Shown here one piece after another: positions 1 through 60,865 of a stretch of DNA of 64,000 nt. Source of the stretch: Gammaproteobacteria bacterium (lineage in GTDB: Bacteria; Pseudomonadota; Gammaproteobacteria; SZUA-140). A program made the translations under genes and the position numbers. Within the stretch, counting starts at the first letter, position 1; each line of letters opens with the position of its first letter. The DNA lies in contig JALSGV010000074.1 in assembly GCA_026982565.1 (NCBI GenBank), positions 331 through 64,330 of the forward strand, given 5' to 3'. Below the pieces are notes generated by a model, which was not told where the DNA came from, did not search any database, and worked only from the letters and a program-made list of their open reading frames with translations.

Positions 1-681
1 GCTGGTCACCATGAGTATGGGCAGATCGGCCTGGCCGCTCTGGTGGCGTATGTGGCCGACCAGCTCGGCGCCATTCATGTGCGGCATGTTGTAGTCTGTC
101 ACCACAAAGTCGAAAAGGGCATGCTCCAGGATCTGCGCGGCCTCCTGACCATTGGCGGCTTCGGTGATTTTTTCAATACCGAAACCTTCCAGCGTGCGCC
201 GAATATGATGACGGGCGAATTGACTGTCGTCCACGATCAACACTTTCAACTCCTCTGCAAAGAGATCTCCCAGTTGCAGCGTATCCGGATCCAGGAACTC
301 CACCGTGGCATACAAGGCGCGCTTCAATTCCTCCGCCTGAAAGGGCTTGGGCAGAATCGCCACCACGCCGGCCTGGCGCACCTCGTCCAGGCACTCGAAG
401 CCCTGCTCGCTGGAGATCAACATGAAAGGCACCTGTTTCAACTTGTCATCCTGCCGCATTCCGGCCACCAGCTCGGCGCCCGTCATGTCCGGCAGGTACA
501 TGGCGCTGATGACCAGGTCAGGGAGCGTTTTGTTCAGCGCGGCAAACACCTCCCGCCCTTTCTGGACATGCTCCAGATATTTCACGCCACACTGTTCCAG
601 ACTCTCCTGAATCACGCGGAACTGCATGCCGGAAGGCTCCGCCAGCAATACTTGCAGTTCACCAATGGAAATTGATTTCAT
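1..681 (-). CDS. Tandem receiver-domain (REC-REC) response regulator, runs off the left edge
   Basis: Not in the ORF track. Manual translation from ATG at 681: MKSISIGELQVLLAEPS...PDLVISAMYLPDMTG...LPKPF...LKVLIVDDS...FDFVVTDYNMPHMNG...LPILMVTS. Two CheY-like domains; the first lacks the phospho-acceptor Asp. Confidence 0.9.
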   Translation of the reverse strand, partial: MKSISIGELQVLLAEPSGMQFRVIQESLEQCGVKYLEHVQKGREVFAALNKTLPDLVISAMYLPDMTGAELVAGMRQDDKLKQVPFMLISSEQGFECLDEVRQAGVVAILPKPFQAEELKRALYATVEFLDPDTLQLGDLFAEELKVLIVDDSQFARHHIRRTLEGFGIEKITEAANGQEAAQILEHALFDFVVTDYNMPHMNGAELVGHIRHQSGQADLPILMVTS

Positions 682-804
682 CCGAACGGCCTTCCCACGC
701 TCATACGTTTAACCCAAATCATAGATCTGCCGATGACCCCAGTATGAGCCCAACCGGCAGCCATACAGGAATTTACGGCAGAAACGGAACAGTACTTGAC
801 TGAA

Positions 805-1857
805 ATGCACCAGGAAAAAACCATCATCCCCATCGGCGGCGGCAAGGGCGGCATCGGCAAGAGCCTGCTGAGCGCCAATCTGGCCATCGCCCTGGCAACC
901 ATGGGCCACAAGACCGTGGTCGTCGACCTGGACCTGGGGGGCTCCAACCTGCACAGTTTTCTCGGCTTGCACGGCGAGGCGCCGGGCATCGGCACCTTTA
1001 TCCACACGGAAAAAAGCAAGCTCGGGGAATACCTGACATCGACACACTGGCGGAACCTGTCCTTCATTCCCGGCGACTGCGACGTGCCGTTCACGGGCAA
1101 TATCCATTACCAGACAAAACTCCGCCTGATGCGCAACCTGCTGGCCATCCCCTGCCGCTACCTGCTCCTGGATCTGGGCGCCGGCTGCAGTCACAATACC
1201 CTGGATTTCTTCAGGATGTCCGACCGGGGCATGGTGGTCACCACGCCGGAAGTCACGGCCGTCAGGAACATGCTGGCCTTCTTGAACAACCTGGTATTCC
1301 GCGTGATCGAAAGATCGCTGAGGAACAAGCCCCATACCCACAAGGCCCTGAAGAGCATCATCCGCCGCAGCGGCGCAAGCCAGACCACCCTGTCGGTTGA
1401 GGACATCCTGGCCGAGGTCGGCGCCATCGACCCGGAGGCGGCCGCCGGGATTCAGGCAGCCTGCCTGAGATACCGCCCGCGACTGGTCCTCAATATGGGG
1501 CGCCACCCGGACGATCTCATACAGATCGAAGGCACTTTTGCCGCCACCCGCAAACTCCTGTCCCTGTATACGGACCCCTTCGGCTTCGTTTTCGACGACC
1601 CGGTTGTACGGGAGAGCATCAACCACGGCACGCCCCTGGTGGAATATGACCCGGACAGCGTGGCGGCAAGAAGCATCGCCCACATTGCGCAGCGCATCGT
1701 ATACGTGTGGGACAAAACCCTGGATGAGCCCGACCAGGCGCTGCTCAATCATACCCGCAAATTCTACGAATATATCCAGAAGGATAATCAGCGGCGAATC
1801 CCCCACAAGCTGTTTTCCACTCCCATCCGGAACCTCTTCCCCAATCTCTTCAGTTGA
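805..1857 (+). CDS. MinD/FlhG/ParA-family P-loop ATPase
   Basis: Deviant Walker A GGKGGIGKS, DLDLGGSNLH and LLDLGAG motifs; ATG at 805 (TTG at 796 is an alternative start). Confidence 0.85.
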   Translation: MHQEKTIIPIGGGKGGIGKSLLSANLAIALATMGHKTVVVDLDLGGSNLHSFLGLHGEAPGIGTFIHTEKSKLGEYLTSTHWRNLSFIPGDCDVPFTGNIHYQTKLRLMRNLLAIPCRYLLLDLGAGCSHNTLDFFRMSDRGMVVTTPEVTAVRNMLAFLNNLVFRVIERSLRNKPHTHKALKSIIRRSGASQTTLSVEDILAEVGAIDPEAAAGIQAACLRYRPRLVLNMGRHPDDLIQIEGTFAATRKLLSLYTDPFGFVFDDPVVRESINHGTPLVEYDPDSVAARSIAHIAQRIVYVWDKTLDEPDQALLNHTRKFYEYIQKDNQRRIPHKLFSTPIRNLFPNLFS

Positions 1858-1873: not shown

Positions 1874-3127
1874 ATGATGCGCTCCATGACGCATCGAGCC
1901 CCCCTACTGTCCGAGTCGCAGGCCCTGCGATGCCTGCTCGACGGCATCGCGCCCGTCGGGGAACGGGAGCAAGTCGATTTGCCAAATGCCCTGGCCCGCG
2001 TCGTCAGCGAGCCGGTAATGGCGCAGAGCGATGTCCCCGCTTTCGACAACAGCGCCATGGATGGTTATGCCGTCGCCTGCGGCGATATTGCCGCGCATGG
2101 CGAAACCCGCCTCGCGATCAGCCAGCGCATCACGGCGGGACGGCAGCCAACCCCCCTCGTGCCCGGCACGGCCGCGCGTATTTTCACCGGCGCCCCCCTG
2201 CCGCCTGGCGCGGATACGGTGGTGATGCAGGAAAACTGCCGTGAAGAAAGGGGACATGTCGTCATCCAGGGGCCTCTCGCCAAGGGCGGACACGTCAGAA
2301 AGGCCGGCGAGGATATCGCGGCCGGGCGTTGCGTCCTGGAGCAGGGAACCGTGATCCGCCCCCAGGAGATGGGACTGGCCGCATCCCTGGGCCGCGCCAC
2401 GCTCCCGGTCTATCGCAGGGTGCGCGTCTCCATCGTGGTGACCGGGAATGAACTGGTGGCCCCGGGCGCGCCCCTGGCGCCCGGGCAGCTCTACAATTCG
2501 AATCGCTATACCCTCTCGGGCCTGCTGTCCGCCCTGGGCTGCGAACTCAGTTACAGTCGCTGCATTCCCGATGACCTGGACGCCACCCGTGACGCACTGG
2601 CCCGGGCGGCACGGGCCTCGGATTTCATCTTGACCAGTGGCGGGGTTTCCGTGGGAGAGGAAGACTACGTCAAGCGTGCCATAGCGGATCTGGGCGCGCT
2701 GCACGTCCATCACATCGCCATCAAACCCGGCAAGCCTCTCACCTATGGCACTATCCACGGCACCCCCCTGCTGGGCCTGCCCGGCAACCCCGTATCCCTG
2801 TTCGTCACCTTTGTGATCTTCGCCCGCCCGGCCATTCTCAAATTGCAGGGGCGCACTGAACTGGCGCCCGCCAGGCTCTGGGCGCGGGCGACATTCGAGC
2901 GCCGCAACCCCATCAAACGGCGAGAATACCTGCGCGCCAGGCTTCAAGAAGCACAGGACGGCCATGGCCACGAGGTCTCAATCCATTCCCGTCAGGGCTC
3001 GGCCGTGCTTTCCTCCACTGCCTGGGCGAATTGTCTGGCTGTCATACCGGAACACGGCACCGTGGCGCCGGGTCAGGCCATAGCGGTCATGCCCTTCTCC
3101 AGCCTGCTGTCACCGCTGTCTGATTGA
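1874..3127 (+). CDS. moeA: Molybdopterin molybdotransferase MoeA
   Basis: FDNSAMDGYA, RIFTGAPLP, SGGVSVGEEDYV, KPGKP and GLPGNPVS motifs; the start may be 1877 or 1886. Confidence 0.95.
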   Translation: MMRSMTHRAPLLSESQALRCLLDGIAPVGEREQVDLPNALARVVSEPVMAQSDVPAFDNSAMDGYAVACGDIAAHGETRLAISQRITAGRQPTPLVPGTAARIFTGAPLPPGADTVVMQENCREERGHVVIQGPLAKGGHVRKAGEDIAAGRCVLEQGTVIRPQEMGLAASLGRATLPVYRRVRVSIVVTGNELVAPGAPLAPGQLYNSNRYTLSGLLSALGCELSYSRCIPDDLDATRDALARAARASDFILTSGGVSVGEEDYVKRAIADLGALHVHHIAIKPGKPLTYGTIHGTPLLGLPGNPVSLFVTFVIFARPAILKLQGRTELAPARLWARATFERRNPIKRREYLRARLQEAQDGHGHEVSIHSRQGSAVLSSTAWANCLAVIPEHGTVAPGQAIAVMPFSSLLSPLSD

Positions 3128-3138
3128 CCCGGCAGCAC

Positions 3139-5169
<2,031 letters not shown>

Positions 5170-39709: not shown

Positions 39710-40313
39710 GATGAAAAAGCCACTCCTGTCGATTTTTCTGCTCCTGCTGCTGCAGACGGCCCATGGGGCGCCGCAGATCCTGGTAATGGGTGACAGTTTA
39801 AGCGCAGCCCACGGCATGGAGCAAAACGCCGGATGGGTCAGCCTGCTGCAGAGGCGCCTCGAAAAAGAAGGCTATCCTCACCGGATCATCAATGCCAGCA
39901 TCAGCGGGGAAACCAGTAGCGGGGGTCTGATGCGCCTGGCCAGAGAGCTGGATGCGCACCAGCCCCAGATCGTGATCATCGAACTGGGCGGCAACGATGG
40001 ACTGCGCGGCCTCCCTCTCCAGGATCTCGAAATGAACCTGGGCGCCATGATTACAGAAATCCAGGACCGTAACATATCAGCCCTGCTCATTGGAATGCGC
40101 CTCCCCCCGAACTATGGCCCTGCCTATACGCGCCGGTTTTCTGAGATCTACCCAGCCCTTGCCCGGCGTTTCGGTATCCCTCTGGCGCCCTTTCTCCTTG
40201 AGGGCCTGGAAAACGATTTCACTTTCTTTCAGACCGATGGTATTCATCCCAATGTTTCAGCACAACCCAAAATGCTCGACAATGTATGGCCCCATCTGCG
40301 GGAATTACTCTAG
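39708..40313 (+). CDS. tesA: Arylesterase/thioesterase I (SGNH)
   Basis: Signal peptide, GDSLS, NASISGET, ELGGNDGLRG, DGIHP. Confidence 0.93.
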   Translation: MMKKPLLSIFLLLLLQTAHGAPQILVMGDSLSAAHGMEQNAGWVSLLQRRLEKEGYPHRIINASISGETSSGGLMRLARELDAHQPQIVIIELGGNDGLRGLPLQDLEMNLGAMITEIQDRNISALLIGMRLPPNYGPAYTRRFSEIYPALARRFGIPLAPFLLEGLENDFTFFQTDGIHPNVSAQPKMLDNVWPHLRELL

Positions 40314-40669
40314 CACTTCCACATTGAGCGGCCCACAGGCGTAAGATTTTTCCCACCAGAGGCCTGACAACTTACTGTTAATATTTGAATATTTGTATAC
40401 CAAAGCCCGAGCGCAAGCGTTATAATTGACAGTTATTCAGATCCTTAGACGAGAATAAAGAGGCGATCTCTACGAACCTGCAACCTTGCAGCGAGCATCG
40501 AAACAAAACTATAACGGCCAAGTCACACGAAATCCCGCTAAAGAATATTCGGCCGGGGGGAGATATAGACAATAATGCATCTGTTTCATGACACGTTGAC
40601 CAACAGCACGAGATTGTGCCCTCAGCGCCTTGAGTGTGACAGCCAAACATAAGCGCTGAAAAAACGAAA

Positions 40670-41944
40670 ATGAATGATCCTGTAAGTTATTTGTTTGCCT
40701 TTTTCGCGACGGTCGTGCTCATCGGCGCTTTGACGCCCTTGGCGCACAAGGTTGGCCTGATCGACCGCCCCACTGCCAGAAAAAGACATGAAGCCGACAC
40801 CCCCCTCGTTGGCGGTTTGGCCATCTATATGGCCGTGGTTATCAGCATCATGATGCTCGACTACGAATTCTCTGCGTTTGCCAGTTTCTTCATTCCATCC
40901 ATTCTCATCATAAGCGTCTGCCTGTGGGACGACCTGCGAGATCTTTCCTATACCATACGCTTGGCCGCACAAGTAATTGCCGTGCTGCTGATGTGCATGC
41001 TGGGCGGCGTAATCGAGAATATTGGCATCCTCACCCCGGATGGGTCTTTATTCTACCTGGGAATACTCGCGATCCCCTTTACCATTTTCTTTTCCGTTGG
41101 ACTCATCAACTCATTCAACATGTGTGACGGCATCGACGGGCTGGTCGGCGCGCTGGCCCTGATCGCCTTGACAGGGTTCAGCGTCGCCAGCATGCATGCC
41201 GGGCGCACAGAAGAACTGCAACTCATCCTGATCCTGATGAGCGCCATCATTGCTTTCCTGGTATTCAATTTCAGAACCCCCTGGCGCAAGCGCGGCCTGG
41301 TCTTCCTGGGTGATGTAGGCAGCATGTTTATCGGATTTGCCATGCTGTGGCTTGCCATACGGCTGACCCAGGGAGAAGAAAGGGCATTGGCCCCGATTAC
41401 CGCCATGTGGTTCCTTGCCTTCCCCTTGTTTGATTCTCTGAGCATCATATTGCGGCGCCTCGTGCGCAGGCGCTCGCCCTTCTCCCCGGACAGGGAGCAT
41501 TTCCACCATGTCCTGCTACTGGCTGGTTTTACCGTCAACCAGTCGGTCGGCATTATTATCCTGCTGGCCACCCTGGGCGTAGCCTTCGGCCTGACCGGTG
41601 AAGCCCTAGGCGTCCATGAGCTGGTCATGCTGTTCCTCTTTGCGTCCTTATTCGGCCTCTACTACTGGGGCATGATGCGCGCATGGAAGGTGATGCGCTT
41701 TCTCAACCGCTCTATCTGCAGAAGGGCGGGGCTCGATCGGCGCAGGAATCGCGACCGCCGCAAAAAAGTCATCGAGGATTGGGGAGCCACCCATACGGAG
41801 CGCAGAACCGCCGGCAGCGACCGGCGCGTGAGTGACAGACGGAACACCATACATAGAAGCCCTGCCAGCGCACATCAGAGCATCGACATGCACAAGCAGG
41901 ATGAGCCCCGTCCTACAAAAGTGGCCAGCAAGCTGGTTAAATAA
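40670..41944 (+). CDS. wecA: Undecaprenyl-phosphate GlcNAc-1-P transferase (WecA/MraY family) with Arg-rich C-terminal tail
   Basis: DRPTARKRH...PLVGG, WDD, NSFNMCDGIDG, FLGDVGS, DREHFHH. Confidence 0.88.
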   Translation: MNDPVSYLFAFFATVVLIGALTPLAHKVGLIDRPTARKRHEADTPLVGGLAIYMAVVISIMMLDYEFSAFASFFIPSILIISVCLWDDLRDLSYTIRLAAQVIAVLLMCMLGGVIENIGILTPDGSLFYLGILAIPFTIFFSVGLINSFNMCDGIDGLVGALALIALTGFSVASMHAGRTEELQLILILMSAIIAFLVFNFRTPWRKRGLVFLGDVGSMFIGFAMLWLAIRLTQGEERALAPITAMWFLAFPLFDSLSIILRRLVRRRSPFSPDREHFHHVLLLAGFTVNQSVGIIILLATLGVAFGLTGEALGVHELVMLFLFASLFGLYYWGMMRAWKVMRFLNRSICRRAGLDRRRNRDRRKKVIEDWGATHTERRTAGSDRRVSDRRNTIHRSPASAHQSIDMHKQDEPRPTKVASKLVK

Positions 41945-41965
41945 GATTGTTTTGGAGTCCCTTTA

Positions 41966-42688
41966 GTGACAGCAATAAGCGAACCGAAAGAAGCCTTTCT
42001 TTATCAGCCACCAGATGACATCACAAAAGAAAGATACAAGAATATTTTTGCTCTTTCCCGCCCCCTGCCATCCAGGCCACTGAAAGTCGCCTTTGATAAA
42101 GCTTTCGCCGTTACTGTTTTAACGATCGCCTCCCCTGTCATCGCTGGACTCTACTTGGCGAACCTTATCGAAGGCCTGCTGATCCCGGAAAACAAAGGGC
42201 CTTTTATTTTTTACTACAATGCCATCAGCGGGGGAAAATTATTCAAGAAATACAAGATCCGCCTCATCAAGACAAAATACATCGACCAGGAGGGCGCGAA
42301 GCGCGGTGACTGGCATGCCTATTCCGCCGAATGGACTCCGGACAGCAGAACTTATGTGGGGCGATTCGTCAAGAAATTCTACCTGGATGAACTGCCCCAG
42401 TTCTATTGCGTCCTCAAGGGAGACATGAGCATCGTGGGGCCACGCCCCCTGGCCGTCCATCATTATGAAAGAGACCTCAAACAAGGCAACGTCACCAGGA
42501 AACTGCTGAAAGGCGGTATCGTGGGAGCGGGGCATGTGCTCAAAGGAAAGCCTGAGATGGGCAATGCCGCCGTCGAATACGATTATATCGAAAAATACCT
42601 CAGCCTTTCCCAACCGGCCCTGCTGCTCATGGACATGAAAATCCTGTGGAAGGCGGTGCTGGTCTTATTTGAAGGGAAAGGTCTTTAA
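41966..42688 (+). CDS. Monotopic phosphoglycosyl transferase (bacterial sugar transferase)
   Basis: LKVAFDK, GRFVKKFYLDELPQFYCVLKGDMSIVGPRP (DE catalytic dyad). Confidence 0.85.
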   Translation: MTAISEPKEAFLYQPPDDITKERYKNIFALSRPLPSRPLKVAFDKAFAVTVLTIASPVIAGLYLANLIEGLLIPENKGPFIFYYNAISGGKLFKKYKIRLIKTKYIDQEGAKRGDWHAYSAEWTPDSRTYVGRFVKKFYLDELPQFYCVLKGDMSIVGPRPLAVHHYERDLKQGNVTRKLLKGGIVGAGHVLKGKPEMGNAAVEYDYIEKYLSLSQPALLLMDMKILWKAVLVLFEGKGL

Positions 42689-42708
42689 CAGACCAGGCCC
42701 GCCATCAT

Positions 42709-43410
42709 TCACTCTGGATCACCTACCGCGATTTCCCGTACAAACGGAACAGTCAAACGGCGCTGCGCAACCTGGGATGCATAATCCAACCTGTCGAGCA
42801 CGGCAAGCAATGCATGCAGATCACGGGAAAAGTGGCGCAACAGGTAGAGCGCAACCTCATCCGGCATCTGCATGCCGCGCTCCCTTGCCCATTGCTGCAG
42901 TATCCCGACCTTATGTTCATCCGCCGGTTGTTCGAGATGCAGCACCATGCCCCAGGCCAAGCGTGAGCGCAGATCCGGCAATCCAATATCCACCGCGCCG
43001 GGAGACACCCTGGCGGCAAAGATCATAAGGGCATCCTGCTCACGCAGACGATTGTACAAATGAAAGAGTCCGGTTTCCCAGTCCTCCTGACCGGCTATTC
43101 TGTCTACATCATCGATGCATACCAAGCGCATGGCCTCAAGCCCCTCAAATATTCCAGGAGCAAGCTCCGCGGCATGGGCAAGTGGAATATAGGCCGTCGC
43201 CCCCCCTCTCCCGGCTACGAAGTGACTGGCTGCCTGTAGCAAATGGGATTTTCCACAACCTCCGCCACCCCACAGATAAATACTCTGCCCTTCCTCTTGG
43301 CATACGGCCTCTCCCAGGTAATCCAAAGCCTCAATATTCCGCCCGGCGATGAAATTCCCGAAAGTTGCGGTATTTGGCAAACGAATACCCAGCGGCAACT
43401 GGATACTCAC
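42709..43410 (-). CDS. hda: DnaA regulatory inactivator Hda
   Basis: QLPL clamp-binding motif near a GTG start with RBS, GCGKSHLL, LFHLYN, LPDLRSRLAWG, RRLTVPFVR. Confidence 0.93.
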   Translation of the reverse strand: MSIQLPLGIRLPNTATFGNFIAGRNIEALDYLGEAVCQEEGQSIYLWGGGGCGKSHLLQAASHFVAGRGGATAYIPLAHAAELAPGIFEGLEAMRLVCIDDVDRIAGQEDWETGLFHLYNRLREQDALMIFAARVSPGAVDIGLPDLRSRLAWGMVLHLEQPADEHKVGILQQWARERGMQMPDEVALYLLRHFSRDLHALLAVLDRLDYASQVAQRRLTVPFVREIAVGDPE

Positions 43411-43438
43411 TTCCTGTCTAGCAACCACGCCAGCAGTC

Positions 43439-44011
43439 TCAAGCCCGGTTTCCATCATTGGCGCGGCGCGCCTGACAGGCGCGCCGCCCCCAGGTCCAGA
43501 CATAATCCACGCCACTCACCACTGTCGTACCCAGCACCACCAACACCAGCCAGTCCGTCAGCCATGACGGCAAGAACCCCAGCAGACTTTGTGACAAGAC
43601 AACGGCAAGCCCCAGAATGATCTGGGCAAAGGTATTCACCTTGCTGATCAGGCTGGGCTCCATTGCATACTTGCCGACGAGAAGAAAGTAAGCGGCGGCG
43701 CCGGCGACGATCAGGAGATCGCGCAAGATGACGGCCATCACCAGCCACAGGGGCAACAGCTCCAGCCACGCCAATGTAATATAGGTGCTCACCAGCAATA
43801 ACTTGTCTGCTAGAGGGTCCAGGACAGAACCAAGGCGGCTGACATAGTTATAACGCTTGGCTATATAGCCATCCAAGCCGTCCGAGATGCCAGCGACCGT
43901 ATAGAGTAACAAGGCGTAGGAGAATTCCTCATGGAGCAGCAGCGTGACAATGGGCACTACCAGGAGAATGCGCAGCAGCGTAATGATATTGGGTATTTCA
44001 GCGTAGTTCAC
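43439..44011 (-). CDS. CDP-alcohol phosphatidyltransferase family protein
   Basis: IPNIITLLR, DGLDGYIAK...LGSVLDPLADK. Confidence 0.9.
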   Translation of the reverse strand: MNYAEIPNIITLLRILLVVPIVTLLLHEEFSYALLLYTVAGISDGLDGYIAKRYNYVSRLGSVLDPLADKLLLVSTYITLAWLELLPLWLVMAVILRDLLIVAGAAAYFLLVGKYAMEPSLISKVNTFAQIILGLAVVLSQSLLGFLPSWLTDWLVLVVLGTTVVSGVDYVWTWGRRACQARRANDGNRA

Positions 44012-56491: not shown

Positions 56492-57124
56492 GTGAACCAG
56501 AAGAAGCGCCGCGAGATCTTCGAGCGCCTCAGGGAAGCCAACCCTGCGCCCACCACCGAGCTGCATTACAAAACCCCCTTTGAGCTGTTGATCGCCGTCA
56601 TTCTCTCCGCCCAGGCGACCGACAAGGGCGTCAACAAGGCGACCAGGGAACTGTTCAAAGCGGCCAACACGCCCCAGGCCATACTGAAGCTGGGGAAGGC
56701 GGGCCTGAAGAAACACATCCGCACCATCGGCCTCTACAACACCAAGGCCGACAATATCATGAAGACCTGTGAAATCCTCGTCCGGGAGCATGATGGCAGG
56801 GTGCCGGATGACCGCAAGTCCCTGGAGGCCCTGCCTGGGGTCGGCCGCAAGACCGCCAATGTCATCCTCAATACCGCCTTCGGCCAGCCCACCATCGCCG
56901 TCGACACCCATATCTTCCGGGTCTGCAACCGCACCGGAATCGCGCCCGGCAAGACCGTCCGCGAGGTTGAAGACAAGCTGATGAAATGTGTCCCGGACGA
57001 ATTCAAGCACGACGCCCATCACTGGCTGATCCTCCACGGGCGCTACACCTGCATCGCGCGCAAGCCGCGCTGCGGGAGTTGTATCATCGAGGATTTGTGT
57101 GAATATACGGATAAGACAGAGTAG
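56492..57124 (+). CDS. nth: Endonuclease III
   Basis: LSAQATD, HhH LPGVGRKTANV, VDTH, CxxxxxxCxxCxxxxxC. Confidence 0.97.
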   Translation: MNQKKRREIFERLREANPAPTTELHYKTPFELLIAVILSAQATDKGVNKATRELFKAANTPQAILKLGKAGLKKHIRTIGLYNTKADNIMKTCEILVREHDGRVPDDRKSLEALPGVGRKTANVILNTAFGQPTIAVDTHIFRVCNRTGIAPGKTVREVEDKLMKCVPDEFKHDAHHWLILHGRYTCIARKPRCGSCIIEDLCEYTDKTE

Positions 57125-57146
57125 CAAAGAGTAAAGATAAAAGTTG

Positions 57147-57578
57147 ATGTTTACGCAGGACCGCAATCAGATTCGGCAGTTTTATTTTGATACTTGGCGC
57201 AAACGGCTGGACGGGGTGCCGCTTGAGCCCATGGAAAGCCTGGTGGCGGGTGTCATCGAACAGCACCCGGAATATCACAAGTTACTTGAAAACCCGGAAG
57301 CGGCCATCGACCGGGACTACCTTCCTGAGATGGGAGAGTCGAATCCTTTCCTGCACATGGGCATGCACATCGGGCTGCATGAACAGATCAGCAGCAACCG
57401 TCCCCAAGGCATCGGCGAGATCCATCGCACCCTCACCACCAAGACCGGGGATCCTCACGAAGCGGAACACCGCATGATGGAATGCCTTGCCGAGGCGCTG
57501 TGGCAGGCGCAGCGCGAGAACCGCCTCCCCGACGAGACGGCCTATCTGGAGGCGCTGCAGCGCCTGGTCACGCCATAG
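57147..57578 (+). CDS. DUF1841-family protein
   Basis: RQFYFDTWRK, HPEYH, NPFLHMGMH..LHEQI, HEAEHRMMECL; typical neighbour of nth. Confidence 0.85.
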   Translation: MFTQDRNQIRQFYFDTWRKRLDGVPLEPMESLVAGVIEQHPEYHKLLENPEAAIDRDYLPEMGESNPFLHMGMHIGLHEQISSNRPQGIGEIHRTLTTKTGDPHEAEHRMMECLAEALWQAQRENRLPDETAYLEALQRLVTP

Positions 57579-57612
57579 CCTATTACGGTTACGGGGAGAG
57601 CCCCCTCGACCG

Positions 57613-57762
57613 TCACCGCCCCATCATGACCAGCAAGGCAGGCACTGTCAGCCAGGCAATGCCTTTCAGCAAAAAGAACAGGAAACCATAGAGCCCCAGG
57701 CGCCGCAACCAGGGCGGAAGCGGGCAGCGTTGAACAATGACTTTTACGAGCTTGCTTTCCAT
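57613..57762 (-). CDS. Small membrane protein (49 aa)
   Basis: MESK...WLRRLGLYGFLFFLLKGIAWLTVPALL; the GFLFFLxKGxxW pattern resembles a conserved tiny uncharacterised family. Confidence 0.65.
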   Translation of the reverse strand: MESKLVKVIVQRCPLPPWLRRLGLYGFLFFLLKGIAWLTVPALLVMMGR

Positions 57763-57923
57763 TGTTGACCTGTGCGCATATTGCAGCTCCACTCTCTTAA
57801 TGAAACATATCGGCAAAACAATGTATCGCTTGAAAAAAGTCAATTATTTGCCGCCACATGCCTCAACGACTGGTTTTCTTGACATCAATAGCAAACAAAC
57901 AAGGTCTTCATAACAGAAAAACG

Positions 57924-57939
57924 TGGCACGCAACCTGCA
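57924..57939 (+). promoter_or_regulatory. sigma54 (-24/-12) promoter
   Basis: TGGCACGCAACCTGCA (GG-N10-GC), 43 nt upstream of ATG 57983. Confidence 0.75.
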
Positions 57940-57982
57940 TCCTCCTTAGCGCATCAGTTTTTTCTTACATGAGGAAGAGATA

Positions 57983-59503
57983 ATGATTACTACAGGTAGT
58001 AAGGGACGAATGTTCAAATGGAAACCTGTCAGGCTGATGACCATGATTCCCATGGCGCTGGTCGTGACGTTTCTGATCCAAATCGGTGATGCCAATGCCA
58101 TCCCGGCATTTGCAAGGAAATACCAGGCCAACTGCGCCCTGTGTCATACCAACGAGCCGCGCCTGACCGTATTCGGCCAGCAATTCAAGGAAAACGGCTA
58201 CCAGATGCCAGGAAGCACGGACGGCGGCGAAACAGCCAAGGATATCCTGGAAGGCGCCCAAGGCCCCGTCAGCGTCGACAAGATATCCAATATCATGGCT
58301 GTGCGCATCCGCGCGGACGTCCAACGCGTCTCCTTCGAGGAAGTGACGGATGAGATGAAGGACGAGAACGTGCGCGAGCAATGGGACGTCGATGTGCCCC
58401 GCATCGTCAACCTGTTCTTTGGCGGCACGGCCACCAAGAACCTCAGCTATTTCATGGAAACCGAGTTCAATACCCAGGAAGGCGGTGACCCGGCGGTCAA
58501 GTTCGAGCGCACCTTTTTGATCTTCTCCAACCTGGGCGGCAAGCAGGGCATTGCCAACCTGAAGGTCGGTAAATTCGACCCCTCGGGGCTGTTCTCTTTT
58601 CCGACCCACCGCCAGCAGATCAACCCGGTGGGGCCGGTTGCCGAAGCCAGCAATTTCCCGCCAACCATCAACAGGGTCCCCCTGCTCCCGTTGGCCTTCG
58701 CCAGCAAGATGTTCGGACTGACAAAAGGCCCGAGTTACGAGGGCAATGAAGACTACGCCCTGCTGCCGGTGCAGCCCTATCTTTACAACGCGCCGGTACA
58801 GACCAGCGTCTCCCTCTACGGCCGGCCCTTGGGCTTTGGCAGCCCCTTCATGTACCAGATCGGCGTTGCGGTCAACGACAAGGTCAGCACATCCGCGCAG
58901 GACAAGGAAAACCGCTACGACACCTACGTCATGGGCCGCTACGACTGGACCATGCTGGGCGGCAAGGCCTTCCAGGCTTCCGCCTTCTATTACCAGGCGC
59001 CTGACGCCGCCATCTCCACCCTCAATATGAGTGGAAATATCGTCTACGCCAGCAAGGCCACGGGCATCACCCGTTACGGCTTCGGCGCCCGCGGCACCTG
59101 GGGCCAGTGGGACATCTACGGCACCTACATCGTCGACAAAATCGACGAGCCCACTTTCTCGGGCATGGCGGCCAATTCGGTGTGGGAGGATACGGGCAAG
59201 GGCATGAGCCTGGAAGCCGACTGGCGCATGAACGACCACTGGATGCTGGGGCTGCGCTACGACTGGATGGCGCCCGGTGGCCTGAAGCAATTGCCCATGG
59301 GCAGCACGGAGCAGTTGAATATCGATGCTTCATTCCTGGCGCCCATCGTCAAGTACTATCCCCGTCCCAATATCGGGCTCTATGCGCGCGCCCACTTCAA
59401 TCTTGAAGACAGCGCCAAGAATCCCATCGGCGGCGGCACGGCGGAACACCCGCTGACCAACCTGACGAACCTGGTTTCGCTGGGCGTGGATATGGCCTTC
59501 TGA
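57983..59503 (+). CDS. Cyc2-like fused monoheme cytochrome c / outer-membrane beta-barrel porin
   Basis: Signal peptide ending ANA, IPAFARKYQANCALCHTNEPRLTVFGQQFKENGY, amphipathic strands, terminal Phe (GVDMAF). Confidence 0.85.
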   Translation: MITTGSKGRMFKWKPVRLMTMIPMALVVTFLIQIGDANAIPAFARKYQANCALCHTNEPRLTVFGQQFKENGYQMPGSTDGGETAKDILEGAQGPVSVDKISNIMAVRIRADVQRVSFEEVTDEMKDENVREQWDVDVPRIVNLFFGGTATKNLSYFMETEFNTQEGGDPAVKFERTFLIFSNLGGKQGIANLKVGKFDPSGLFSFPTHRQQINPVGPVAEASNFPPTINRVPLLPLAFASKMFGLTKGPSYEGNEDYALLPVQPYLYNAPVQTSVSLYGRPLGFGSPFMYQIGVAVNDKVSTSAQDKENRYDTYVMGRYDWTMLGGKAFQASAFYYQAPDAAISTLNMSGNIVYASKATGITRYGFGARGTWGQWDIYGTYIVDKIDEPTFSGMAANSVWEDTGKGMSLEADWRMNDHWMLGLRYDWMAPGGLKQLPMGSTEQLNIDASFLAPIVKYYPRPNIGLYARAHFNLEDSAKNPIGGGTAEHPLTNLTNLVSLGVDMAF

Positions 59504-59534
59504 CAAACAGCATTTCACTCGCCTGCAAACCTGG

Positions 59535-59573
59535 GGGCGGTTACAGCATCAGCCGTGACCGCCCTTTCTTTTC
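59535..59573 (+). terminator. Intrinsic terminator after the cytochrome-porin gene
   Basis: GGGCGGTTAC-N10-GTGACCGCCC followed by TTTCTTTTC. Confidence 0.75.
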
Positions 59574-59578
59574 ATTTC

Positions 59579-59983
59579 TTATGGAAAACATGCCGCATAA
59601 TCCCCGCCTTGGATCAATCGCAGCCCCCGGGTCGCATGGAGGTACTCGTAACACCAGGCTTTTACAGACTCGCCATTGTCCATCTGCAAGGACACCAGCA
59701 CACGGCGGTATTCATGGGGTTCAGGGTGCTTGGGCGAGCATTGTTCATAATCATCCAGGTCCCTCAAGGTTGCGTGGGGCTCCAGAAGGCGGTAGACCTC
59801 TCCCTTGACGTGGCTCCCTGCGCCACCCGAAAACGACAAACCCGGATATCCCCCGGCATCGTACAGACAACCTGATATCCAGGCGTCTCCCATGTATTCT
59901 GCCTTGCCGGCCAGGAGGCTGTGCATGGAGTTGGGAACAGCTCGCCGCAAGGTGCCGTAGGCGAAAAGGTAGTGCGCGCTCAT
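59579..59983 (-). CDS. Gamma-glutamylcyclotransferase (AIG2-like) family protein
   Basis: LFAYGTL, LYDAGGYPG, VKGEVY, LDDYE. Confidence 0.88.
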   Translation of the reverse strand: MSAHYLFAYGTLRRAVPNSMHSLLAGKAEYMGDAWISGCLYDAGGYPGLSFSGGAGSHVKGEVYRLLEPHATLRDLDDYEQCSPKHPEPHEYRRVLVSLQMDNGESVKAWCYEYLHATRGLRLIQGGDYAACFP

Positions 59984-59986
59984 TTG

Positions 59987-60865
59987 TCAGCCGATGACGC
60001 GAGATAGGCGGCGTGCCCAACTTCCCAGTTGTTCGGCCTCGGGCTTGAAGCGATAAACAGGCCGCTCCCCCGGTTCCTGATAATAAGGCAGCATCTCCGG
60101 CGCCAGGTCCCGCAGGCTCTCAATTCTCGTTTGAGGCGCGGGGTGTGTGCTTAAGAGTTCCGGCGGCGCCTTGCCACCGCTGACGCTTTTCATCTTTTTC
60201 CACAAGCTTACGGCTGCGCGGGGATCATAGCCGGCGCGCGCCGCCAGTTCGATGCCGATGCGGTCCGCCTCGCTCTCCGCCGTCCGGCTGTTGGGCAACT
60301 TGACGGCCAGGGCTGCCGCAAGGGAGGCGCCGGCCAGAGCCAGTCCGCTGTTGTCCTGGCTCACCGCCACGGCTGTCACGGCCAGGTCGCTGGCCAGCGC
60401 CACGGACATCTTCTCCGCCGTATGCTTGGCCAGGGCATGGGCAATCTCGTGACCGAGCACCTGTGCCAGTTCATCATCCGTCGGCCCGATTTTCTCAACC
60501 AGGCCGGTATACAAGGCCATGCGCCCCCCCGCCATGGCCCAGGCATTCACCGTTTCCGGCTCGTCGATGATGTGTATGCTCCATTTCCAGTTGGCCGTCT
60601 CGGGGCGCAATTTAATGGCCTGGGCAATGAGACGCCCGCTGATGGCCTCCACCCGCGCCTTGAGCCGGGCATCGTTGTCGATCTTGCCCTCTTCCGCGGG
60701 CTTCTTGAGCATTTCGAAATAGGCTGGCTCCGACGCCTTGATGGCCGCCTCCTCCGAAATCAAAAGAAACTGACTGCGCCCGGTAATGGGCGCCGATGCA
60801 CACCCGGCGAGAAACAATGCAAGCACCAGCATGACGGCCAGCTTGTTTTTCCCGATCAAAGCCAT
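59987..60865 (-). CDS. M48-family Zn metallopeptidase lipoprotein
   Basis: Lipobox LAGC, NAWAMAGG, LGHEIAH, ESEADRIG, LSTHP. Confidence 0.92.
   Translation of the reverse strand: MALIGKNKLAVMLVLALFLAGCASAPITGRSQFLLISEEAAIKASEPAYFEMLKKPAEEGKIDNDARLKARVEAISGRLIAQAIKLRPETANWKWSIHIIDEPETVNAWAMAGGRMALYTGLVEKIGPTDDELAQVLGHEIAHALAKHTAEKMSVALASDLAVTAVAVSQDNSGLALAGASLAAALAVKLPNSRTAESEADRIGIELAARAGYDPRAAVSLWKKMKSVSGGKAPPELLSTHPAPQTRIESLRDLAPEMLPYYQEPGERPVYRFKPEAEQLGSWARRLSRVIG

Follow-up and report, generated by a model that had tools for sequence, protein, structure and literature searches.

In this study, we identify the gene at positions 57983-59503 (plus strand) of a 64,000-nucleotide stretch of DNA (hereafter the window; contig JALSGV010000074.1 of assembly GCA_026982565.1, a gammaproteobacterium of the GTDB lineage SZUA-140) as encoding a predicted outer-membrane cytochrome-porin of the Cyc2 family. 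Moreover, the relationship of the protein to sequences from Candidatus Tenderia electrophaga and Nitrospira supports its placement in Cyc2 Cluster 3. The gene is ordinary in the sense that it is a further member of a known family, and proteins of its type have already been explored, its Tenderia orthologue Tel_03480 having been in the literature as a Cyc2 homologue since 2015-2017. By analogy with characterised family members, Fe(II) oxidation or electron uptake by the organism is plausible. Cyc2 is the main genetic marker for inferring microbial iron oxidation from genomes, and within the family Cluster 3 is the group whose function is least supported. The window gene, which alone leaves current knowledge unchanged, adds a well-formed Cluster 3 member from a vent gammaproteobacterium of an order other than that of Tenderia.

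Cyc2 signature of the window protein

In the sections cited here, Keffer et al. (2021; PMC8406198) recognize a protein as Cyc2 when it is at least 365 amino acids (aa) long, has a signal peptide and only one CXXCH, preceded by the motif AXPXFAR[Q/K][T/Y] and followed four residues later by PXL, and carries a fused 16-strand porin similar to OprO and OprP. All of the sequence features, namely the signal peptide, the one CXXCH, the motif, PXL and the length, are found in the 506-aa window protein, and a porin fold of the 16-strand type is predicted for it, in line with the Cyc2 architecture that had been claimed in a preliminary description of this DNA. The list of open reading frames (ORFs) gives the gene, stop codon included, at exactly the same coordinates as that description. 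By inspection, the N-terminus is signal-peptide-like, with five Lys or Arg within residues 7-17 (K7, R9, K12, K14 and R17), hydrophobic residues at 18-34 and A-N-A at 37-39, and the structural model has a helix at residues 14-33, which agrees with the signal peptide proposed earlier. The predicted mature protein begins with IPAFARKY-QAN-CALCH-TNE-PRL-TV-FG-QQ-FKENGY and ends in GVDMAF; this motif, the CXXCH that occurs only once in the whole protein and the terminal Phe had all been singled out before, and all are present in the translation. Five residues lie between R45 and C51, and P59-R-L61 starts at the fourth residue past H55. The features of the gene, with the basis for each in brackets, are as follows.

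57983-59503, plus strand: cyc2-family gene, fused monohaem cytochrome-porin (ORF map, homologues, published criteria, model, tree)
57971-57975, plus strand: Shine-Dalgarno-like GAGGA, 7 nt ahead of the ATG (read from the sequence)
57983-58099, plus strand: signal-peptide-like N-terminus, residues 1-39, ending in A-N-A (translation; model helix 14-33)
58097-58165, plus strand: Cyc2 signature A39-L61, AIPAFARKY, QAN, CALCH, TNE, PRL (published consensus and conserved columns)
58133-58147, plus strand: predicted sole haem c attachment site CALCH, C51-H55 (translation, motif count)
58292-59500, plus strand: predicted beta-barrel porin body, residues 104-506, ending in Phe (AlphaFold2 model, Foldseek)
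58577-58798, plus strand: long loop between predicted barrel strands 5 and 6, residues 199-272, with the FPTHRQ segment (strand map, invariant columns)

A protein similarity search gave 232 proteins at E ≤ 1e-3 among 6968 scored candidates, and a HMMER search over 1.84 billion representatives gave 1741 clusters at E ≤ 1e-3, 171 at 1e-10 and 19 at 1e-30. Within the 2.64-Mb draft genome, the pattern FAR..x3-7..CXXCH is found in only four stop-to-stop frames of at least 60 aa. These match counts, together with the rarity of the pattern in the genome, indicate that the signature is not a product of chance. Across 73 family sequences (rows) that span many phyla, A39, C51, C54, H55 and G65 are identical in every row, and F43 (69/73), R45 (70/73), P59 and L61 (each in at least 67 of the 73) are near-constant.

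Predicted structure

An AlphaFold2 model built on 47 homologues of 47-94% identity has a mean predicted local distance difference test score (pLDDT) of 79.1 and a predicted template modelling score (pTM) of 0.78. Long strands run from residue 104 to residue 505, the 10-residue blocks from residue 111 onward have pLDDT values of 69-94, and about 16-17 long strands are counted from the DSSP string (the string, not the coordinates). When the model was compared with the Protein Data Bank (PDB) by Foldseek, 16-strand porins came first, led by VhChiP (E 7.5e-13) and followed by OprP, OprO, Omp32 and OmpF down to about 1e-9; OprP (2o4v) ranked fourth and OprO (4rjw) seventh, both with probability 1.00, and target-normalised TM-scores among the porin matches were 0.58-0.69. 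OprP and OprO are the same two structures that were matched by Keffer et al. in the section cited (PMC8406198). The beta-strand-rich body noted in the preliminary description is therefore modelled as a barrel. Its likeness to OprP, OprO, OmpF and VhChiP is one of barrel fold class, whereas identity to these porins is 9-14% and they lack a haem domain. The most highly conserved residues outside the haem domain lie in the 74-residue loop 199-272, in which F206, P207, T208, H209, R210, Q211, P215, P233 and P236 are invariant in 47 sequences; by its position in the model, we infer that this loop would correspond to the constriction loop L3 of classical porins.

The same barrel might be taken for an ordinary diffusion porin or a TonB-dependent receptor in which the CXXCH is incidental: it resembles OmpF- and OprP-type porins, two homologues (P0055, P0057) are named 'TonB-dependent receptor' at NCBI, and a few homologues have precomputed PF13609 or PF00593 matches. 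However, the window protein itself has no porin (PF13609, Porin_4) or TonB-dependent receptor (PF00593) match in Pfam at E ≤ 1, and searches of Pfam and NCBIfam, neither of which holds a Cyc2 model, gave nothing above threshold, the sole Pfam match being a sub-threshold one to Cytochrome_CBB3 at residues 42-58 (E = 0.13). Moreover, the modelled barrel belongs to the 16-strand class and has no plug domain, and the constancy of C51, C54 and H55, with F43 and R45 nearly constant as well, would be unexpected for an incidental site. We regard this explanation as very improbable. A sequence search of the PDB matched no chain and returned only a chance match to a ribosomal protein (E = 1.6). The NCBI names of P0055 and P0057 look like mis-annotations.

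Phylogenetic placement and comparison with known Cyc2 proteins

The best named relative of the window protein is Ca. Tenderia electrophaga Tel_03480 (ALP52279.1), with 69% identity over 94% of the query. A tree of 71 rows, from which a long-branched Chlorobium row and a duplicate Woeseia row of the 73 assembled were left out, was inferred with IQ-TREE under LG+C20+F+G4 by the posterior mean site frequency (PMSF) approach, with support from the ultrafast bootstrap and the Shimodaira-Hasegawa-like approximate likelihood ratio test (SH-aLRT). The window protein and Tenderia fall together in a 7-row clade (support 100/98), within which the 6-row clade that joins both directly has only 93/69. Woeseia and Thiohalomonadales are added in an 18-row clade (100/98), and Ca. 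Nitrospira defluvii, N. lenta, other Nitrospirota and one Rokubacteria sequence in a 31-row clade (100/100). The rows from Gallionella, Sideroxydans and Nitrosomonadales all belong to a separate clade. In the cited sections of the literature, the Tenderia sequence has been placed in 'cluster III' together with Leptospirillum (PMC9769843), and all Nitrospira Cyc2s have been assigned to Cluster 3 by tree and FeGenie (bioRxiv 2024.12.25.630300). Since the window protein shares a clade with both, its sequence supports membership of Cluster 3 by way of two independent literature anchors, Tenderia and Nitrospira; the rows include no Leptospirillum, Acidithiobacillus or Mariprofundus sequence, and the placement is not a direct comparison with Cyt572 or with Cluster 2. 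With these indirect anchors, the resemblance to Cluster 3 that had been noticed from the FARKY variant holds, and the window protein stands apart from the Gallionellaceae type.

Tel_03480 is alike in its motif (AVPAFARKY-EAN-CALCH-TNE-PRL) and in its GVDMAF end. As deposited, it starts about 10 residues before the motif and is without the signal peptide seen in the window protein; judged by this comparison, its start codon was probably called too late. Eddie et al. (2017; PMC5371394), in the sections cited, describe Tel_03480 as the cyc2 homologue and report high abundance of its protein on the biocathode, together with a transcript 0.69 log2 higher at 470 mV, the less favourable potential, than at 310 mV. 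Unlike the window organism, Tenderia has expression data, whereas no RNA run is among the three runs that contain the window DNA. The two also belong to different orders: the 36 genomes of the window organism's order yielded no sequence 100% identical to Tel_03480, which puts Tenderia outside that order as sampled here. Gammaproteobacteria that inhabit inactive sulfide chimneys have likewise been described as having Tenderia-like Cyc2 homologues, some of them detected as expressed proteins (Meier et al., 2019; PMC6850669, section cited).

Cyt572 of Leptospirillum, an Fe(II) oxidase and the reference protein of Cluster 3, belongs to the same family and to the same literature cluster as Tenderia and Nitrospira; compared by description only, it differs in coming from an acidophile and in its long branch and unusual haem, as described in the cited parts of Keffer et al. 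(PMC8406198). The Cyc2 proteins of Mariprofundus ferrooxydans PV-1 (Cluster 1) and Acidithiobacillus ferrooxidans (Cluster 2) share with the window protein the signal peptide, the motif, the one CXXCH and PXL, as well as fusion to an OprO- and OprP-like porin of 16 strands (PMC8406198, as far as cited). They belong to other clusters, however, and the window protein is set apart with 100/100 support from the Gallionellaceae-type rows, which serve as proxies for Cluster 1. It also has FARKY rather than FARQT and is longer, with the conserved 74-residue loop.

In the organism's order (36 species genomes, 11 genera), a Tenderia-type Cyc2 is present in six of the 36 genomes, that is, in three of the 11 genera and in four of the 25 high-quality genomes. 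Other genera of the order carry other types: two genomes (G007 and G013, loci L014 and L015) have the Gallionellaceae type, one (G015, L013) has a Cyc2 type common to a Thermodesulfovibrionales metagenome-assembled genome, and one (G016, L010) has a Nitrospira-like Cluster 3 type. Judging from these sequences, Cyc2 repertoires vary widely within the order.

Locus and transcription

The genes upstream of cyc2 are purM-like, purN-like, a Mrp/ApbC-like ATPase, metG, rnfC, rnfD, rnfG, rnfE, nth and a DUF1841 gene, and downstream a GGACT gene in convergent orientation is followed by an M48 peptidase, a 95-aa ORF and an aldolase/SDR fusion, so that cyc2 sits among housekeeping genes. A genome of the same genus (G002) keeps the full order rnfCDGE-nth-DUF1841-cyc2-GGACT-M48-orf95-aldolase with 91% identity in Cyc2, and two genomes of another genus keep cyc2-M48-orf95 only, with 75-80% identity in Cyc2 and 63-80% in the neighbours. 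Because the identity of Cyc2 to its same-order orthologues resembles that of the neighbouring genes, these comparisons point to purifying selection on the window cyc2. In five other genera, the M48 peptidase neighbour is at most 40% identical, which is too divergent for a synteny comparison with genomes that lack the gene. Two features of the locus bear on transcription.

57579-57982, no strand assigned: gap of 404 nt between the DUF1841 gene and cyc2, presumed promoter region (ORF map, Pfam)
59533-59580, plus strand: intrinsic-terminator-like hairpin at 59533-59566 and U-rich tail (folding)

When 59504-59590 was folded, a GC-rich hairpin of 12+2 pairs followed by the U-rich run UUUCUUUUCAUUUCUU was obtained, with a minimum free energy of -28 kcal/mol (z = -3.85; 0 of 200 shuffles as stable). 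The simple scan overlooked it because its loop exceeds the limit of the scan. The terminator ascribed to the gene in the preliminary description is thus recovered after the stop codon. The promoter ascribed to it is not borne out, since a simple promoter scan of 57400-60100 gave no sigma-70-like site on the plus strand, and a promoter is only implied by the 404-nt upstream gap and the convergent gene downstream. Rfam gave no match at E ≤ 0.1 in 57000-60200. Overall, the window cyc2 appears to form a transcription unit by itself.

In A. ferrooxidans, cyc2 lies within the rus operon beside cyc1. The window locus, unlike the rus operon, has no partner gene. Other members of the branch do have one. 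A related-locus search, which used a 32-sequence alignment and the pattern A[IVL]PAFAR[KQ]Y (so that FARQT-type genes fall outside it), returned at least 599 stretches and is no census; no Tenderia, Leptospirillum, Acidithiobacillus or Mariprofundus locus is among the matches listed. In seven of the 26 homologous loci examined, one from Woeseia (L024, 2521..3354) and six from Nitrospira (L027, L032, L034, L035, L038 and L043), cyc2 is followed on its own strand, at a distance of 4-7 nt, by the start of a dihaem c4-like gene, and in one more (L045) a dihaem ORF lies directly upstream. Two of these dihaem genes were tested and have double class-I cytochrome c domains, that is, they are c4-like. 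The arrangement is reminiscent of cyc2 and cyc1 in the A. ferrooxidans rus operon, and the dihaem genes directly after cyc2 in Woeseia and Nitrospira indicate that this branch works with a periplasmic class-I cytochrome partner. The partner of the window Cyc2, if any, would be encoded elsewhere in the genome.

Electron transfer inventory of the genome

The genome bin (214 contigs, 2.64 Mb, 90.8% complete, 2.1% contamination) has three further Cyc2-like genes, on contigs C97, C63 and C161, and many candidate periplasmic partners, so that the stand-alone character attributed earlier to the window gene, with no partner cytochrome, applies to the locus and not to the bin as a whole. On C97 (2.1 kb; 3..869, minus strand), a second Tenderia-type cyc2 reads for 289 aa to the contig end, with 74% identity to the window protein; the sequence represents either a paralogue or a fragment contributed to the bin by a related strain, and the same-genus genomes G001 and G002 have one Tenderia-type copy each. 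On C63 (760..2055, minus strand) there is a 431-aa Cyc2-like gene with AIPAFARKY-NLS-CVACH, which groups at 100/98 in the tree with Gemmatimonadota, Calditrichota and Zixibacteria sequences and makes up a third lineage; about 1 kb away is an ORF (3007..3573) which, by eye, we take to be HypD-like. The third gene fills the 1463-base contig C161 (40..1422, minus strand). It encodes 460 aa with AIPAFARQT-SQA-CTACH, its relatives at 27-33% identity are Gallionella, Sideroxydans and Nitrosomonadales, which it joins in a 15-row clade (90/87), and by these relationships it is probably a Cluster 1 type Cyc2. The tetranucleotide make-up of C97 and C161 matches the genome and weakly supports their belonging to it, both contigs being short. 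It is worth noting that one bin thus holds three deeply different Cyc2 lineages (the Tenderia type, the Gallionellaceae type, and the type shared with Gemmatimonadota, Calditrichota and Zixibacteria) along with a Uet-like multihaem cluster and RuBisCO, and that no Sox or Dsr was detected (searches of this 90.8%-complete bin gave neither SoxB nor a DsrA above cut-off).

The presence of a Gallionellaceae-type Cyc2, which could be the true Fe(II) oxidase of the organism, leaves room for the window protein to be a redox porin with another job, such as Mn(II) oxidation, outward electron transfer to Fe(III) or another acceptor, Fe(II) detoxification or redox sensing. The patchy presence of the gene in the order would suit such a role, as would the composition of Cluster 3, whose genes are also found in iron reducers and which includes Nitrospira sequences and a Ca. 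Manganitrophus homologue for which a role in Mn(II) oxidation has been proposed (bioRxiv 2024.12.25.630300, section cited). However, none of these roles has been demonstrated for any Cyc2, and according to the cited sections of Keffer et al. the two acidophile Cyc2s tested and the Cyc2 of PV-1 all oxidise Fe(II) (PMC8406198). We consider another job of this kind unlikely.

The Uet-like block (C153:39044-46553, minus strand) comprises two NHL-repeat genes, an 882-aa protein with 11 CXXCH, a 349-aa ORF that matched no NCBIfam family and a TPR protein, in the published uetH-uetI-uetJ...nrfG gene order of Ca. Tenderia electrophaga. A three-CXXCH ORF is found at the contig end, and the RuBisCO large subunit is on the same contig (C153:4727-5653). 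The bin further encodes a thioredoxin-domain protein with six CXXCH, one pentahaem cytochrome and two trihaem cytochromes of class I. The single full-length haem-copper oxidase is a divergent cbb3-like CcoN (C146:34376-37546, minus strand) with a CcoO-like neighbour; its score of 225 bits is well below the 583-bit cut-off of the CcoN equivalog, and three short COX1-like fragments of 182-197 aa occur elsewhere in the bin. Two NiFe-hydrogenase-like genes are also present. The search for periplasmic cytochromes and a cbb3 oxidase that had been suggested earlier thus turned up candidates for both, and the inventory is consistent with lithoautotrophy. The Tenderia genome is alike in having an undecahaem cytochrome with NHL proteins, trihaem cytochromes, a cbb3-like oxidase and RuBisCO.

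The Uet-like block also bears on whether the same molecule may serve a solid donor, that is, whether it acts as an uptake port, alone or with Uet, for electrons from conductive metal sulfides or, for Tenderia, from an electrode, and is not an Fe2+ oxidase. The only run that holds most of the stretch is labelled a hydrothermal vent metagenome, the bin has an NHL-NHL-undecahaem-...-TPR block like that of Uet, the Tenderia orthologue responds to electrode potential on the biocathode (PMC5371394, section cited), and Tenderia-like Cyc2s are expressed in inactive sulfide chimneys (PMC6850669, section cited). On the other hand, Keffer et al. argue in the cited part of their paper (PMC8406198) that a single haem inside the pore cannot reach a solid surface and needs dissolved Fe2+, and Eddie et al. 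(2022) regard Uet, not Cyc2, as the principal route of uptake. The porin-multihaem complexes MtoAB, PioAB, MtrAB and Uet, like Cyc2, move electrons across the outer membrane, but they do so with separate porin and deca- or undecahaem subunits that form a membrane-spanning haem wire, whereas the window protein is one polypeptide with one haem site and has no CXXCH gene in its flanks. A solid donor seems to us improbable as the basis of the function of this protein.

Discussion

We think it rather probable, by analogy with characterised Cyc2 family members, that a haem-loaded outer-membrane Cyc2 takes electrons from dissolved Fe(II) and hands them through class-I cytochromes to the cbb3-like oxidase, with reverse flow feeding CO2 fixation. 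After export by its Sec signal peptide, a domain of about 60 residues would bind one haem c at CALCH, fused to the 16-strand-type porin; the haem, in or at the pore, would accept single electrons from an extracellular reductant, which, given neutral pH and the hydrothermal-vent setting, would most probably be dissolved Fe(II). The electrons may then be passed on to soluble c-type cytochromes of the periplasm, whose genes would lie elsewhere in the genome, and from there to the cbb3-like oxidase, and reverse flow would supply RuBisCO-based CO2 fixation.

Several points weigh against this assignment. No Cluster 3 member near the Tenderia-type branch has a verified activity, and Keffer et al., in the section cited, call Cluster 3 function 'most uncertain' and consider that Cyt572 may be unrepresentative (PMC8406198), a judgement that bears out the caution on function voiced in the preliminary description. 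Full-length relatives at 32-35% identity are found, among the matches listed, in Nitrospira, which are nitrite oxidisers. In the Tenderiales, Cyc2 has been judged at most auxiliary (Eddie et al., 2022), and the patchy presence of the Tenderia type (6/36) indicates that it is dispensable in the order of the window organism. With regard to the haem itself, no His or Met column that could provide a conserved distal ligand is kept across the 73 family rows, H209 being kept in Tenderia-type rows only and not in Nitrospira-type rows, and residues 35-51 of the haem region are modelled at pLDDT below 50, which is to be expected of a model that lacks the cofactor. Moreover, neither the window nor the three orthologous loci examined have an ORF with a CXXCH beside cyc2.

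The Tenderia-type branch is marked by a length of about 500 aa, FARKY, the conserved 74-residue inward loop with FPTHRQ, and many conserved Arg and Asp positions in the barrel. It might be speculated that these marks set off a functionally separate Cyc2 class with which vent and sediment Gammaproteobacteria draw electrons from metal-sulfide minerals or from donors other than Fe2+, the three Cyc2 lineages of the organism and Uet each being tuned to a different donor or potential; we believe this to be doubtful. At any rate, since three Cyc2 lineages and a Uet-like cluster come together in one bin, this lineage is a good one in which to ask whether Cyc2 clusters differ in donor.

Elsewhere in the window, positions 40001-44000 are lower in GC (0.53-0.54, compared with about 0.59-0.60) and contain genes for a family-4 glycosyltransferase and a bacterial sugar transferase that adjoin an Hda-like gene.

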